Assembly: GCA_049512935.1 (NCBI GenBank)
Contig: JBEKWR010000003.1
Location: 111,025-175,024 of the forward strand
Origin: Candidatus Bathyarchaeia archaeon
GTDB taxonomy: Archaea; Thermoproteota; Bathyarchaeia; Bathyarchaeales; Bathycorpusculaceae
DNA length: 64,000 nt
Direction of reading: 5' to 3'
In this document: positions 18,070-64,000 of the stretch, in pieces
Layout of the letters: every line of letters begins with the position of its first letter
Position numbering within the stretch: position 1 is the stretch's first letter
Notes under the pieces: model-generated
Databases searched by the model: none
What the model was told of the DNA's origin: nothing
Seen by the model: only the letters and a program-made list of their open reading frames with translations
Position numbers and translations under genes: made by a program

Positions 18070-19151
18070 TAACCAGCGCCGACATCGCCAAAATCCTCGA
18101 CAAGTACGATCAGAAAAAGCTGGCCATAGGCACGTTGGGTTCTCATAGTTCACTTAACATTTTCAAGGGCGCCAAAGAGGAAGGGTTCCGCACGGTTTGC
18201 GTATGCAAAGAAAAAGACGCGATAATGTACAAGAAGTACCCGCTCGTTGACGACTTAATCATCGTGAAAGACTTCACGGAACTCTTAAGCGAGCAAATAC
18301 AGGAGAAACTCCGCGGGCTGAACGTCATTTTGATTCCCCACGGCTCCTTCACCGCCTACCTCAGCACCGAAGAATTAACCAGCAGCCTCATGGTGCCCAT
18401 GTTCGGCAACCGCCAGCTCCTCCACTGGGAAGCCAACCGCAAATCCCAGGAAGAGTGGCTGCGGCAGGCAGGGCTGCGTTTGCCAGCCACGTTCAAAACG
18501 CCCGAGGACATCGACCGCTTAGTCATCGCCAAGCTGCCAGGCGCCAAAGGCGGAAGAGGATACTTTTTGGCGAATTCGCCTAAAGCCTTCCACAAGAAAT
18601 TCAGCGAACTCGTGAAGCGCGGCTTGCTCAGAGAAGATGATTTAGCCGCTATTCACTTGCAGGAGTACGCGTTGGGCGTTAACGTTTACCCCAGCTACTT
18701 CAGCTCCATCCTAAACGACGAGGTTGAACTGCTAGCCATGGACAGGCGTTACGAGTCAGCGGTGGACTCCATCGGCAAAATCCCCGCGAGCGAACAGCTG
18801 GAGATTGACATTAACCCAACCTACACCATCGTGGGCAACTTCCCAATCGTGCTCCGCGAATCGCTGCTGCCCGAAATCATGCGCATGGGCGACAACGTGC
18901 ACAAAAAAGCCAAAGAGCTGGCGCCGCCAGGAATCATCGGACCCTTCTGCCTAGAAACTGTGATAACCGACGACCTCAAAATCTTCACGTTCGAAATCTC
19001 CGCGCGCATCGTTGCGGGAACCAACGTCGGCATCGGCACTTCACCCTACGCTTACCTGAAGTACGGCGAGAACATGTACATGGGAAGACGCATCGCCAAG
19101 GAAATAAAGGAAGCAAGAGAAACTAAAAGACTACTGGAGATTCTAGCATAA
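18066..19151 (+). CDS. purP: Formate-dependent AICAR formyltransferase PurP, paralogue 2
   Basis: GSHSSL, IPHGSF, GAKGGRGYF, DRRYES, GPFCLE, FEISARIVAGTN. Confidence 0.9.
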   Translation: MITSADIAKILDKYDQKKLAIGTLGSHSSLNIFKGAKEEGFRTVCVCKEKDAIMYKKYPLVDDLIIVKDFTELLSEQIQEKLRGLNVILIPHGSFTAYLSTEELTSSLMVPMFGNRQLLHWEANRKSQEEWLRQAGLRLPATFKTPEDIDRLVIAKLPGAKGGRGYFLANSPKAFHKKFSELVKRGLLREDDLAAIHLQEYALGVNVYPSYFSSILNDEVELLAMDRRYESAVDSIGKIPASEQLEIDINPTYTIVGNFPIVLRESLLPEIMRMGDNVHKKAKELAPPGIIGPFCLETVITDDLKIFTFEISARIVAGTNVGIGTSPYAYLKYGENMYMGRRIAKEIKEARETKRLLEILA

Positions 19152-44444: not shown

Positions 44445-44750
44445 TTACTCCAATTCGCTTATCTGCATAAGCTACTATGTGCTTACTGACTTATAAACGT
44501 ATTTGTTTATGTGTTTAATCTCTAAAGTGATTACCTATTACATAAAAGCAACTATTGAAGTGGTCTCTCATCTTCCTTTTGGCTTGAACTCTAATCCCAA
44601 CAATTGCTTTATTACCATAGGAAGCGCAAATCTACTTTCAGTTGATGAAATAAATGGAAACGTTTTTTCTAAAGTCTTTTGGTTGCATTTAAAAATCTTG
44701 GCGCACCATTCTCAATTAGTTACCGTTCTATCCACCTTAAAGTGGAGAAA

Positions 44751-45092
44751 CTAAGTATCGTTTTGTGCGCTGATTTTTACTAGTAAAAGTTGGCTTAACA
44801 GTTTACTGATGTTGCTGGAAGCGATTACGTTGCTCTGTTCGCTTCTTTTTTTCTTTCTGTGTTCTGCAGTATGAGCTTTGATGGCGCGGTTCATGGCCTG
44901 TAAATCTGGCAGCAGCAGTATTTCGGCTCCGCATTCGCACTTAATTGTTGGCAAGCGTTCCTTCAAATGCTTATCCGCATCAGCGATGTTGTCTCCTATG
45001 TTCTCGGCAATTACCGCCGCCTCAGTCGGCAACAGTTTCTGAAGCTTCTCAACTCTATTCCGCTTCATCAGAACTTGAAAATCTCCGTTCAC
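44751..45092 (-). CDS. Small putative zinc-binding protein
   Basis: IKCECGAEILL...AIKAHTAEH (C2H2-like). Confidence 0.6.
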   Translation of the reverse strand: MNGDFQVLMKRNRVEKLQKLLPTEAAVIAENIGDNIADADKHLKERLPTIKCECGAEILLLPDLQAMNRAIKAHTAEHRKKKRSEQSNVIASSNISKLLSQLLLVKISAQNDT

Positions 45093-45143
45093 TTTCCTAA
45101 TGGAGTAAATATATTCTTGTAGAGCCTTTTATGGTCATGTCTG

Positions 45144-45161
45144 TGTAGCTCCCCACCTACA
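45144..45161 (+). promoter_or_regulatory. 18-bp box (motif B)
   Basis: TGTAGC-tcccca-CCTACA followed by ttaaaa. Confidence 0.55.
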
Positions 45162-45189
45162 ACGTTAAAATGTCTTCGGAGGCACCCGT

Positions 45190-45502
45190 AGCACTAAAAC
45201 AGCAGGGGGATTTCAGATATTTCTCCATGGAAACTGGCACAATAGTGATGCACCTATCTATACCGGTGGTTTATGGGCTTTGGAATCCGCAAGTCACGTG
45301 AATATAATAGAAACGTTTCTGTGAAGAATAAGTTGTGGTGTGAGGATATAAATCCAAGAACGTGCTTTGGCGGACCCACACACGTTATCAGGAAGCGAAC
45401 ATAAGAGAAGTGACGAAAGTTACAAACTATTCGCATCCCTTTTAACGCTGATCCGCCAAAGCAGTGGGTAGATTCACGCTATCAGGACTTCGCCTTGTGG
45501 AT
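45190..45502 (+). ncRNA. Candidate structured ncRNA
   Basis: Nested complementary segments including a perfect 12-bp helix and a GAAA-tetraloop hairpin; no convincing ORF. Confidence 0.45.
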
Positions 45503-45511
45503 AAATAACTT

Positions 45512-45529
45512 TGTGACTGGAAGGTCACA
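45512..45529 (-). promoter_or_regulatory. Motif B
   Basis: TGTGAC-tggaag-GTCACA (perfect arms) + gcaac; ataaata adjacent. Confidence 0.8.
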
Positions 45530-45705
45530 GCAACAAGATTATCCCTTAAAAGGCCCAAAAGAAAACTTCCCTGAGGAAAAGTGGTAGGAATCAGTTCTTG
45601 CGGCTAATATTAAACCGTCATATTGACCAAGCCTATCATGACCTTTGAGAACCGACAAACAGAGAGGCTTCTAAACGCAAAATTAGAATAAAAAAGAAAA
45701 GAAGT

Positions 45706-46758
45706 TTAGGTTAGTTCATGGCTTTTAGATGCTTTTTGTTTAACTACCTTAACCAAGATAAACGAGCACGTAGCAATCGCCAAGGTCAGCAACAGAATGG
45801 ACGAAGTTAATTCAGGGACTTTTGGAGTTGATGTTGGACTTGTTGAACTTGATTTTGATGTTGGAGCCGGTGTAGCTGTTGATTTTGAACTTGAAGTTGT
45901 TGTTGGACTTGGGGAACTTGATTTTGATGTTGATGTTGGAGTAGATGTTGAACTTGATGTTGGAGTTGGAGTTGACGTAGTTGTCGAAATTGGTGATACG
46001 ATGGTGTTAGACTGTAAAGTAACTGCACTTTGTGCCAATGCCAAACCATTCAACGTTGCACCAGTAGTTAGTGCAATCGCTGTTTTGTCAAGAATAATTC
46101 CACTAAAGGCCGAGTGTGTTCCAAGTGTCGTTTGTCCAGCGACCACCCAGAAGATGTTACTTGCCTGTGCGCCACCACTCAAAATAATTTGTACGTTAGA
46201 ACTGACAGTGAGAGTTCCTGCTATCTGGAATACCCATTCAGCACTTGAACTTCCTGAGAGAGTGACAGCTGATGGTATTATCACATTGGTACCCCACTTG
46301 TAAATGCCAGCAGTTATTGTTAATCCACCGATGTTTCCTGCACCTAATGCATTGACGGGAGCAGGAGTGGTTAGTCCAGCCACAGTAGTATATGCCGTTT
46401 GCATATCGCTTATAGCCGTAGTCATCATAGTTGGAGTAGGTGCTGCATAGTTAGATGCGTATACCTTTCCAGTCACCAGAGAGGATGTCGAAAATGTATT
46501 CGAGGAATCCATTATCAACCCGAAGCCTGTTATGTATGAAGCAGCAGCTGGGCTTACTCCAATATTTCCAGTTATTGAAGTAGTTCCAGTGGTTGAGATT
46601 CCTGTTTTTGCTAAAATAGCAAAATTTCCTGCTGTACCAAGAACGTTAGCTGGTAACGTGTTTGCTGATACATTAGAGATCTGTATGATACCTAATAATG
46701 CTATGAAACAGAAGAAAGTGAAAAATACGCTTAATTGAGTCCTAGTCTTTTTCTTCAT
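45706..46758 (-). CDS. Ice-binding-like protein (DUF3494) with S/T linker and PEF-like C-terminal anchor
   Basis: LGTAGNFAILAKTGIS, ITGNIGVSP, AISDMQTAY, GIYKW, WVFQI, NIFWVV, LAQSAVTL; VPEL + TM + KQK. Confidence 0.9.
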   Translation of the reverse strand: MKKKTRTQLSVFFTFFCFIALLGIIQISNVSANTLPANVLGTAGNFAILAKTGISTTGTTSITGNIGVSPAAASYITGFGLIMDSSNTFSTSSLVTGKVYASNYAAPTPTMMTTAISDMQTAYTTVAGLTTPAPVNALGAGNIGGLTITAGIYKWGTNVIIPSAVTLSGSSSAEWVFQIAGTLTVSSNVQIILSGGAQASNIFWVVAGQTTLGTHSAFSGIILDKTAIALTTGATLNGLALAQSAVTLQSNTIVSPISTTTSTPTPTSSSTSTPTSTSKSSSPSPTTTSSSKSTATPAPTSKSSSTSPTSTPKVPELTSSILLLTLAIATCSFILVKVVKQKASKSHELT

Positions 46759-47400: not shown

Positions 47401-47516
47401 CCGACATTCTGGCAGCTGCGCCTGCGCTAATCGGCAAAACTACTGAAAAGAATTTGAAACTTGAAGCGACAAGAAAAATGAAGTTTTAAATAAAAAAAGG
47501 AAAGGAAATGTTAAGT

Positions 47517-55344: not shown

Positions 55345-56142
55345 TTAGTCTTCAGTTTCTTTCCAGTCGGATTCAAAACTTGTTCTGAGTACGCCTATGA
55401 GGTTGCTGTTGTTTGTCCAAAGAGAAGGGCTTTCGCCTAATCCGCTTTCTTTGGAGGCAGTAATCAACGCTTCTTTATCATCAGACATTATGAAGTGATT
55501 CAAAGGTTCACGATGAAACTTTACGTGAACCGAAGCGCCATCGATGAGTTTCTGCACTTTTTCTTTGAGCAAAGCGTCCGGGCTTTCTCCTTCAAAAATT
55601 AGTCGAACCTGAGCCCCTTTCTTTATCGCCCGCTTGCATTCATCTGAAAACTGAGACAAAACCGGTATGATTCTTCCCTTGTCGGCAATCAACGCGACTT
55701 CTTTACTCGAGTTCTTAATTAGTTCTGAAGTCTTTGCCAAAATTGCTTTCTTTTCTGCTATCAGTATGTAGATGCTTTCTTCTCCGGGAAGCGGCTGCTT
55801 CCAGTCTTTAAGGGACAGCCTTTGGACACTGCTCCTCATACCCGTCAGCCGTTCATCCGATTTGCTTTTTTCTTCCGATACCAAGAGGCTTAATGCATCC
55901 GAAATCGGGGTCGCTCGAATCTTAGCTGGTTTGCCCAGTAATCTTTCAATCAAGCCCATTTTTTCGAGTGTCGGCAGAATTCTGTAGACGTCTTCCCTAC
56001 GCACTTTTGAAAACTTCGCTACCTGTCCTACCGTAGTTTTTTCCAGTTTAAGTATAGCTAAGTAAACCCTTGCCTGATTAAGACTTAAACCCAAACCAAG
56101 CAGGAGGTCAGTGTTTTCGTCGTCGGTCATTCTCACTGCCAT
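55345..56142 (-). CDS. TrmB-family transcriptional regulator
   Basis: LGLSLNQARVYLA...VRREDVYRILPTLEKMGLIE; C-terminal effector domain (FIMSDDKEA...LWTN...FESDW). Confidence 0.9.
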   Translation of the reverse strand: MAVRMTDDENTDLLLGLGLSLNQARVYLAILKLEKTTVGQVAKFSKVRREDVYRILPTLEKMGLIERLLGKPAKIRATPISDALSLLVSEEKSKSDERLTGMRSSVQRLSLKDWKQPLPGEESIYILIAEKKAILAKTSELIKNSSKEVALIADKGRIIPVLSQFSDECKRAIKKGAQVRLIFEGESPDALLKEKVQKLIDGASVHVKFHREPLNHFIMSDDKEALITASKESGLGESPSLWTNNSNLIGVLRTSFESDWKETED

Positions 56143-59350: not shown

Positions 59351-59645
59351 CAAGGAAAACTACCAACTTCTATCCTTTTTTTTCTTCTGCCTCAAAAGCC
59401 AAGTCAAAAAAGAAAAAAGGCAGGTTTATGCTCGCCAAGTCTTTTCTCAATGTGGCGCACGCTACACAAAATAGTTTTGGTTAATAGTTCTAATGTAGAA
59501 CCTACCATCTTAGCATGAGGAGAGCTATTACAAGGGTATGTATCATGGCCAACTACAATTCCGAAGGCAGTAGCAAAAAGAAGCGACAACTTAGATACTC
59601 GACTCCAATTCTCGAGCAAAACTTCGGTTGATGCCCAGATGTTGT

Positions 59646-63655: not shown

Positions 63656-64000
63656 ACTCCGGTTGATCCTGCCGGACCCCACTGCTATCGGGATAGGACT
63701 AAGACATGCTAGTCGAGTGCCTCAGCCAAAACGAGGCACGGCGCACAGCTCAGTAACACGTGGCTAACCTGCCCTTGGGATAGGAATACTCCCGGGAAAC
63801 TGGGGCTAATTCTCAATAGGCGAAGAACTCTGGAATGAGTCTTTACTTAAAAGACGCTGAGGTTATGCTCTTCGGTGTCGCCCAAGGATGGGGCCGCGAC
63901 CGATCAGGTTGTTGGTGAGGTAATGGCTCACCAAGCCTTTTACCGGTGCGGGCCGTGGGAGCGGGAGCCCGGAGATGGGCACTGAGACAAGGGCCCAGGC
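63656..64000 (+). rRNA. rrs: 16S rRNA, 5' part (truncated by the window edge)
   Basis: ACTCCGGTTGATCCTGCCGGA start; GCTCAGTAACACGTGG; GGGAAACTGGG; ACTGAGACAAGGGCCCAGG. Confidence 0.97.

Follow-up and report, generated by a model that had tools for sequence, protein, structure and literature searches.

A predicted small RNA gene behind a stress-type promoter element in Bathyarchaeia

The window analyzed here is a stretch of 64,000 nucleotides (nt) from the genome of a Candidatus Bathyarchaeia archaeon (GenBank assembly GCA_049512935.1; contig JBEKWR010000003.1, hereafter C3), a genome of 2.30 Mb in 49 contigs with 47.7% G+C; positions are those of the window unless another contig is named. Two of its minus-strand genes, one for a protein of 105 amino acids (aa) and the other for an ice-binding-like protein, are separated by a gap of 613 nt. 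Within this gap, also on the minus strand, lies a sequence that folds into one long irregular hairpin and is preceded by a TATA box and by a palindromic element of 29 nt, termed motif B (Table 1). From sequence comparison, this is probably a stand-alone gene for a small non-coding RNA of ~134 nt that belongs to a motif-B regulon. An annotation made earlier from the DNA letters (the original prediction) had placed a longer RNA on the opposite strand, between two convergent motif-B promoters. By BLAST, the locus is present in one full copy in its own genome, except for a 64-nt likeness of the region around a second palindrome of the gap (box 1) on contig C2. The only Rfam match at gathering thresholds in the whole window is the archaeal small-subunit (SSU) rRNA that begins at 63656. 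The DNA has been found in peat and wetland metagenomes; a run search returned 22 DNA runs and 2 metatranscriptome runs, the metagenomes being of peat, wetland, or unspecified origin.

Table 1. Features of the predicted RNA gene and of its surroundings.
Feature	Position	Strand	Remarks
Predicted type-A small RNA	45345..45478	-	~134 nt; covariance-model match 45348-45478: 134.4 bits (R1), 122.8 bits (R2)
Motif-B element	45508..45536	-	29 nt; inverted repeat TGTGAC-N6-GTCACA; directly upstream of TATA box
TATA box TATTTAT	45501..45507	-	directly after motif-B element
P0, 5' strand	45469..45477	-	pairs with 45348-45356, closing the rod; in minimum-energy fold
P1, 5' strand	45450..45463	-	contains UUGGCGG; pairs with 45363-45376; perfect 12-bp repeat
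P2, 5' strand	45443..45447	-	pairs with 45383-45387
P3, 5' strand	45428..45439	-	pairs with 45391-45402
Variable apical region	45403..45427	-	pyrimidine-rich (CUUCUC) on 3' side in type A
T-rich tail after P1	45348..45361	-	possible termination signal
Stem of original prediction	45285-93/45494-502		9 pairs, one G-T; outermost
Stem of original prediction	45297-303/45472-78		7 pairs
Stem of original prediction	45363-74/45452-63		12 pairs, perfect; also found by a repeat search
Stem of original prediction	45383-87/45443-47		5 pairs
Stem of original prediction	45395-99/45430-34		5 pairs
Hairpin of original prediction, GTGAC-GAAA-GTTAC			present in the sequence as described
Box 1, palindrome TGTAG-N8-CTACA	45144..45161		outside RNA gene; in conserved upstream region of 105-aa gene
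105-aa protein gene ('p113')	44751..45068	-	113 aa if read from upstream GTG
Ice-binding-like gene (PF11999)	45706-46758	-	other flank of the gap
TrmB-family regulator gene (PF01978 + PF11495)	55345-56142	-	orthologue of RNA-adjacent regulator; 10 kb from RNA
bPH-domain gene	61779		example of a gene preceded by motif B
45-aa lysine-rich ORF	62347		example of a gene preceded by motif B

Homologues of the hairpin fall into three subtypes: type A, to which the window copy belongs; type B, in which ~33 nt of 5' tail are conserved and the apex carries an additional hairpin; and type C, with a CU-rich apex. Covariance models were built from 13 type-A sequences (R1) and from 28 members (R2). BLAST searches of 120 genomes of the genus recover 45356-45540 in 13 genomes, at 72-88% identity, and sequence to the left of ~45355 is kept only in the three closest. 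From left to right, the homologue alignment consists of a conserved core (the inner three helices), 25-40 nt of variable spacer, and a block of high conservation with a TATA-like heptamer and the palindrome at 45508-45536. The heptamer TATTTAT, or a near variant of it, is kept in type-A loci. Archaeal TATA boxes lie at about -26 from the start of transcription, and on this layout we take 45501-45507 to be the working TATA box. Since the heptamer is centered near 45504, the start is expected at 45477-45479. This position is the first base of the outermost helix in the minus-strand fold, and by eye it is also about where sequence conservation begins. The RNA would end near 45345-45348, to judge from where the T-rich tail lies and conservation stops. 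In every subtype the hairpin is followed by such a T-rich run (TTCTT-type in A, CTTTT in B and C), which may act as a terminator.

Both strands of the locus fold better than dinucleotide shuffles. For 45270-45515 (246 nt), the z-score is -2.25 on the plus strand (5 of 200 shuffles as good) and -3.20 on the minus strand (0 of 200). For 45345-45480 (136 nt), the minus strand reaches -52.4 kcal/mol (z -5.95) and the plus strand -39.3 kcal/mol (z -4.31). The hairpin is also maintained during evolution. In a MAFFT alignment of the 13 type-A sequences (A1), pairing is intact in 95.7% of cells, vs. 38-42% in slid controls, and both partners have changed at 5 of 27 pairs. In an alignment of 28 sequences fitted to the model (A4), 94.5% of cells are paired and compensatory change is found at 14 of 27 pairs (52 cells); none of 500 shuffles reaches this, and slid controls pair in 31-46%. 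RNAalifold, unaided, proposes 24 pairs, 14 of them with compensatory change. In a MAFFT alignment of the three subtypes together (A3), the 3' arm of P3 was misaligned, and this alignment was excluded from these counts.

The individual helices differ in how well they are kept. Among the 28 members, P1 is paired in 94.6% of cells with compensatory change at 5 pairs, P2 in 94.5% with compensatory change at 2 of 4 pairs, and the core of P3 in 96.9% with compensatory change at 6 of 7 pairs. Four added pairs that extend P3 are less well kept (73% paired). For P0, 70% of cells are paired in the 13 type-A sequences vs. ~40% in slid controls, which supports this helix weakly. With regard to direction within the genus, A4, read on the proposed sense strand (minus in the window), contains 99 G-U vs. 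15 A-C cells. In 25 of the 28 members, the sense hairpin folds more stably than its complement, with means of -39.7 and -31.6 kcal/mol, respectively.

These data support part of the original prediction and alter the remainder. The six stems that it listed are all present in the sequence, and an unannotated, conserved, rod-like structured RNA at this locus, lying under a promoter element common to stress-type genes, is supported. Among the listed helices, the inner three are kept in relatives, and the two outer stems and the GAAA hairpin, which was to form a GNRA apex, are not; by eye, the latter fail in the aligned G075 and G074 homologues (loci L013 and L014). The extent had been given as 45170-45530, and the conserved unit is 45345-45478. 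G-U pairs and the GNRA loop had been taken to favor the plus strand, and it is the minus strand that folds better, here as in most members of the family.

The transcript that was originally envisaged, a plus-strand RNA running from ~45195 to 45500 or beyond and driven by a box with TATA at 45144-45170, with the minus-strand promoter serving an antisense partner, draws on the plus-strand fold, which also beats its shuffles, and on box 1 itself. Box 1 fits the motif-B matrix better in the plus direction (score 8.4, as compared with 1.2 in the minus direction) and is followed by TTAAAA, and the sequence just past its TATA-like stretch is conserved in the upstream regions of the 105-aa gene family. 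However, for a matrix built from 8 good sites a score of 8.4 lies below noise, given that the reversed-sequence null has 29 sites of at least 12. The right arm of the outermost proposed stem overlaps the TATA box of the minus-strand promoter, and 45195-45355 is conserved only in the closest relatives. Furthermore, the position of box 1 is fixed to the 105-aa gene and not to the hairpin. A region of ~190 nt upstream of this gene, including box 1 and a TATA-like element, is strongly conserved in 16 homologues and paralogues. In genome G013 (locus L005; G013:C38, 1680-1910), the 105-aa gene, together with its palindrome, is turned around with respect to the RNA gene, so that box 1 points away; this copy is cut short just after its CxC site (76 aa) and runs into the 3' end of the RNA. 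In G118, G103, and G113, box 1 lies on the far side of the RNA's promoter. Thus, box 1 is one element of the 105-aa gene's upstream region that moves with that gene, a convergent promoter pair is not supported, and the box at 45512, which was thought to serve an antisense transcript, is the promoter of the RNA itself. The plus-strand model fails on conservation, and we consider it quite improbable.

The 105-aa protein has no Pfam match above the cut-off and no NCBIfam, PADLOC, or PDB-profile match, and Atlas searches return only unnamed clusters. It has 143 homologues; among the 120 listed, about half carry names, all of them hypothetical, and the named source organisms are Bathyarchaeia. Four residues are invariant (C44, C46, H66, and H70), and this CxC...HxxxH arrangement may form a zinc site. 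A paralogue of the gene is found in the same genome at C2:126321-126626.

A small protein-coding gene at the position of the hairpin has next to no chance of being the correct explanation. Two frames are open in the window, the minus-strand open reading frame (ORF) 45254..45436 (60 aa) and a plus-strand ORF at 45367..45471 (34 aa), and by eye the latter is also open in the G075 homologue (L013). On the other hand, among 11 homologues examined (the last four not included), the minus frame is open for anywhere from 9 to 102 aa and lacks a start codon in 4, so that the protein, whose conservation would have spoken against a structured RNA, is not conserved. A stop interrupts the plus frame in the G123 homologue (L016), and in G013 this frame is shifted (by eye). 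Substitutions pair up across the two arms of the hairpin and are not placed at third codon positions.

The promoter of the predicted RNA is part of a larger set. Motif B recurs in the window as TGTGAC-like half-sites with a 6-nt spacer and TTGT in front; a TATA-like stretch follows after 2-4 nt, and a gene on the same strand begins ~40-70 nt downstream. With the position matrix built from eight such sites, 32 sites in the genome score at least 16, vs. 2 in the reversed-sequence null, and the box at 45508-45536, with a score of 36.9, is the third best. It reads in the motif-B direction on the minus strand and thus points into the conserved hairpin, not away from it. Of the homologous loci, 12 of 12 carry a box at this site, oriented the same way. 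Where presence is defined as a match to the consensus, the box and the TATA element lie on the sense side of the RNA in all 15 type-A loci (35 or 45-48 nt from the end of the box to P1) and in all 12 type-B loci (60-66 nt). Motif B precedes some 20-30 other genes of the genome, many of them of stress type; they include two KGG-repeat stress proteins, MsrA-like, bPH, PRC-barrel, fasciclin/DUF1508, and ice-binding-like proteins, and small membrane proteins.

The right half of the window is dense in motif B. Besides the box of the RNA, sites occur at 47407, 48619, 54095, 56805, and 58908 (minus) and at 59639, 61709, and 62276 (plus), with scores of 13.1-33.0. They stand before PRC-barrel, fasciclin/DUF1508, small membrane, ice-binding-like, and bPH genes and before the 45-aa lysine-rich ORF, and this half looks like a stress-gene island of one regulon. 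It contains a second ice-binding-like gene (PF11999; 59735-61357, plus) which, like the one that flanks the gap, encodes a secreted protein with a long Ser/Thr/Pro-rich tail. G013 and G087 lack the flanking ice-binding-like gene at the syntenic position, and there DUF5670 and PRC-barrel genes directly follow the RNA's promoter. Elsewhere in the genome, downstream of a motif-B site at 19052 on the minus strand of C10, a long hairpin of ~150 nt (a very strong fold, -57.7 kcal/mol for 175 nt) ends in seven U and may be a further small RNA of this regulon; it is not matched by R1 (E up to 1) or R2 (E up to 1e-5) in searches of the genome.

The hairpin is widespread in one genus. R1 matches 62 of the 120 genomes and R2 matches 102 (64 of the 73 of high quality), with 1-5 matches each. 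Within the family, R2 also has matches in 4 of the 70 genera sampled; outside it, 135 genomes that represent 31 other families of the class gave none. When named genomes were scanned with a pattern, 38 loci were obtained, namely 29 in metagenome-assembled genomes of Bathyarchaeota/Bathyarchaeia, 1 in a genome labelled Nitrososphaeria archaeon, and 8 in bacteria; by rough arithmetic, ~8 chance matches are expected in such a scan. Types A, B, and C probably constitute an undescribed RNA family in one family of Bathyarchaeia. The genome studied here carries a second copy, of type B, on the minus strand at C9:45597-45730 (45.9 bits with R1), which has the same build of box, TATA element, three-helix hairpin, and CTTTT run. 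In this paralogue (C9:45560-45770), the conserved ~33-nt 5' tail starts at the predicted start site. A stretch similar to that tail (17 nt with one mismatch) is found behind a strong motif-B promoter at C17:23815.

The gene neighborhoods of the two main subtypes bear on whether the hairpin could be a 5' leader or attenuator, i.e., a hairpin and T-rich tail within the mRNA of the downstream gene on the same strand that controls read-through. Type B is syntenic in 11 of 12 loci, in the order Lon-type protease, 70-aa membrane protein, RNA, and DUF559 gene. The DUF559 gene follows on the same strand in these 11 loci, at 51-87 nt in 10 and at 398 nt in one. Type A adjoins the 105-aa gene in 9 of 15 loci: the gene lies downstream on the same strand in 5 (in the window and 4 others, 161-256 nt away), divergent in 3, and convergent and truncated in 1. 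In the other 6, the 105-aa gene is not found within the locus. A hairpin followed by a T-run does resemble an attenuator. However, the variable position of the neighboring genes argues against a leader role for type A. In addition, the 105-aa gene keeps its own conserved upstream region and TATA-like element even without a nearby RNA, and at the type-B locus of the same genome a TATA-like stretch separates the hairpin from the DUF559 start (by eye). A leader is unlikely as an account of the family as a whole, although for type B, the position of which is constant in 11 of 12 loci, a cis-regulatory role is possible. A TrmB-family gene is found directly 5' of the type-A RNA in 6 of the 15 loci. 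In the present genome its orthologue lies elsewhere in the window (Table 1), and a paralogue on C2 adjoins the C2 paralogue of the 105-aa gene.

Several known RNA classes were considered and rejected. The signal recognition particle (SRP) RNA (RF01857) is located at C3:55941-56255 (144.5 bits) and the RNase P RNA (RF00373) at C26:9428-9730 (189.5 bits), and neither model matches at the RNA locus; the original prediction had likewise recognized neither. Searches of 44900-45800 against Rfam 15 (E up to 10) returned only matches of 13.7-14.2 bits, none of them on the hairpin. Nothing was found at the type-B locus, and 20 further loci of the family gave one microRNA match of 21.7 bits vs. a cut-off of 72. 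ARAGORN detected no tRNA or transfer-messenger RNA (tmRNA) genes in 44500-46000. H/ACA guide RNAs are marked by a large internal pseudouridylation pocket, an upper stem that contains a K-turn or K-loop, and an ACA box immediately 3' of the lower stem. The internal loops of the predicted RNA are 1-5 nt, tandem G-A pairs are lacking, and the three bases after P1 differ among subtypes, with no conserved ACA (by eye). C/D box small RNAs of ~50-70 nt carry C (RUGAUGA) and D (CUGA) boxes at their ends; the matches to C/D families were the weak ones of 13.7-14.2 bits, all outside 45345-45478. A mobile repeat of the miniature inverted-repeat transposable element (MITE) kind is rejected by the single full BLAST copy in the genome, the divergence of the paralogues, and the synteny of type B; there are no tandem repeats within the RNA. 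A cis-regulatory leader or riboswitch is rejected for type A, the downstream gene and its orientation being variable. A promoter of its own upstream on the RNA strand and a structure with compensatory change, as expected of a stand-alone small RNA gene, are both present.

The following mechanism is proposed for the stand-alone RNA. Transcription would start ~25 nt downstream of the TATA box, with the motif-B element directly before that box, and the RNA would fold as one long irregular hairpin (P0-P1-P2-P3 and a variable apex) that ends in the T-rich tail. Most likely, the RNA would be the non-coding arm of a stress-type regulon, co-activated with the protein genes by a factor whose site lies upstream of the TATA box; by analogy with related regulators, a candidate is the TrmB-family regulator. 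The RNA would then be a trans-acting regulator whose rod confers stability or offers proteins a surface to bind. Its targets would be contacted by the CU-rich apex, which is unpaired, in types A and C and by the conserved 5' tail in type B.

A number of observations weigh against this proposal. A4 was fitted to the structure of the model, so its pairing is inflated; the relatedness of the sequences also inflates the counts, and since much of the compensatory change distinguishes one subtype from another, there are fewer independent events than cells. The type-C copies are without a good motif-B match (scores of 8.3, -4.0, -0.2, and 2.4), and in the window's tail no run of T is as long as five. 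Transcripts have not been seen: contigs of two metatranscriptome runs match only parts of an hsp20 gene and the repeat part of the ice-binding-like gene and have no coverage of 45100-45750, which is uninformative either way. The link between the TrmB-family regulator and motif B is drawn from gene neighborhood and analogy only, and the regulator is a candidate in that sense. Searches for targets or partners gave results at chance level. RNAduplex, applied to 9 type-A RNAs and the leader of the adjacent 105-aa gene, gave z-scores from -1.2 to +1.2 in 8 of 9; the outlier (-5.4) is due to a likeness between the palindrome and a hairpin arm. Short-match BLAST of tails and apices against the genome returned only chance-level matches, in a search that, with its strand setting, was not a proper antisense search. 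Finally, of 8 matches in three other genera, 3 have the more stable hairpin on the sense strand, 4 have it on the complement, and 1 shows no difference, so the thermodynamic strand bias is a property of this genus only. Direction in the other genera rests on the motif-B box and the T-run; motif-B scores at these matches are 30.4, 28.6, 26.7, 19.9, 19.8, 10.9, 10.9, and -2.7, and the motif is counted as present in the 5 with scores of at least 19.8.

The absence of strand bias in the other genera is also what would be expected if the conserved entity were a palindrome in the DNA, either half-sites for a symmetric protein or a cruciform, in which mirrored changes in the two arms mimic RNA covariation. 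The sequence of both arms is conserved more than pairing alone needs, and the locus lies amid palindromic regulatory sites, with the gene for a DNA-binding regulator as a frequent neighbor. However, the arms are set apart by widely varying distances, depending on the apical insert (hairpins of 89-110 nt, apices of ~10 to 45 nt), and the bulges are conserved one-sidedly: at the P1/P2 junction, the 3' side has 4-5 nt and the 5' side 1 nt. Within the genus, the excess of G-U over A-C cells in A4 speaks for pairing in RNA, and all copies of types A and B have a promoter at one end and a T-run at the other. The varying arm distance, the one-sided bulges, and this framing make a DNA palindrome quite unlikely.

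A further and rather doubtful idea concerns the way in which the RNA acts. The hairpin RNAs could be protein-binding regulators instead of antisense RNAs, in which the rod, built of nearly invariant helices (UUGGCGG/CCGCCAA and others), titrates a protein of the regulon. Candidates for this protein are the neighboring, putatively zinc-binding 105-aa protein and the TrmB-family regulator itself. In that case, the RNA would be a feedback arm of the regulon and an archaeal counterpart of 6S/CsrB-type RNAs, with 1-5 specialized paralogues per genome.

Bathyarchaeia are abundant in peat and sediments, and to our knowledge few if any of them are in culture. Full-text searches of a limited body of papers returned none that, judged by title and abstract, deals with small RNAs of Bathyarchaeia. 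A covariation-supported RNA family that is nearly universal in one large genus (102 of 120 genomes), together with a defined 29-nt promoter element that marks a putative regulon of some 20-30 stress-type genes and an adjacent candidate regulator, makes up a testable regulatory circuit that could be traced in metatranscriptomes. The covariance model can be used to annotate genomes of the genus.

The predicted RNA can be compared with several known systems. Like the SRP and RNase P RNAs of archaea, which are about as large as it or larger, it is structured; SRP RNA shares its rod-like shape. Among bacterial small RNAs, the sigma-E-dependent RybB and MicA are embedded in a regulon. Like them, the predicted RNA would come from a short stand-alone gene that uses the same promoter element as the protein-coding members of a stress regulon, and it has a stable terminal hairpin with U-rich sequence at the end. 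In contrast to RybB and MicA, the present RNA has an archaeal TATA-type promoter with an upstream palindrome instead of a sigma-factor promoter, and its hairpin is far longer (~40-45 bp). It resembles them neither in sequence nor by model; the RybB model gave a single match of 13.8 bits vs. a cut-off of 40, located outside the RNA at 45658-45705.

For motif B, a comparison is offered by TrmBL1 of Pyrococcus. This regulator is reported to bind TATCAC-N5-GTGATA, the Thermococcales glycolytic motif, activating from sites upstream of the promoter and repressing from sites downstream (PMC4706686). Motif B resembles the TrmBL1 motif in being a hexamer inverted repeat with a short spacer that is located upstream of TATA, i.e., in the activating position. 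It differs in its half-sites and spacer (TGTGAC/GTCACA with N6), on which ground it was rejected as an operator of that TrmB type, and its putative regulon is of stress type and not of sugar metabolism.

With respect to overall shape, the predicted RNA can be set beside 6S RNA and Y RNA, in which the 5' and 3' ends pair and one long irregular helix carries conserved internal loops. We know of no archaeal counterpart of either. Unlike these RNAs, members of the present family are ~130 nt long, have neither the large central bubble of 6S RNA nor a Ro-type bulged helix, and match no Rfam family. As in 6S RNA and Y RNA, the helices are conserved beyond the needs of pairing, which suggests recognition by a protein.

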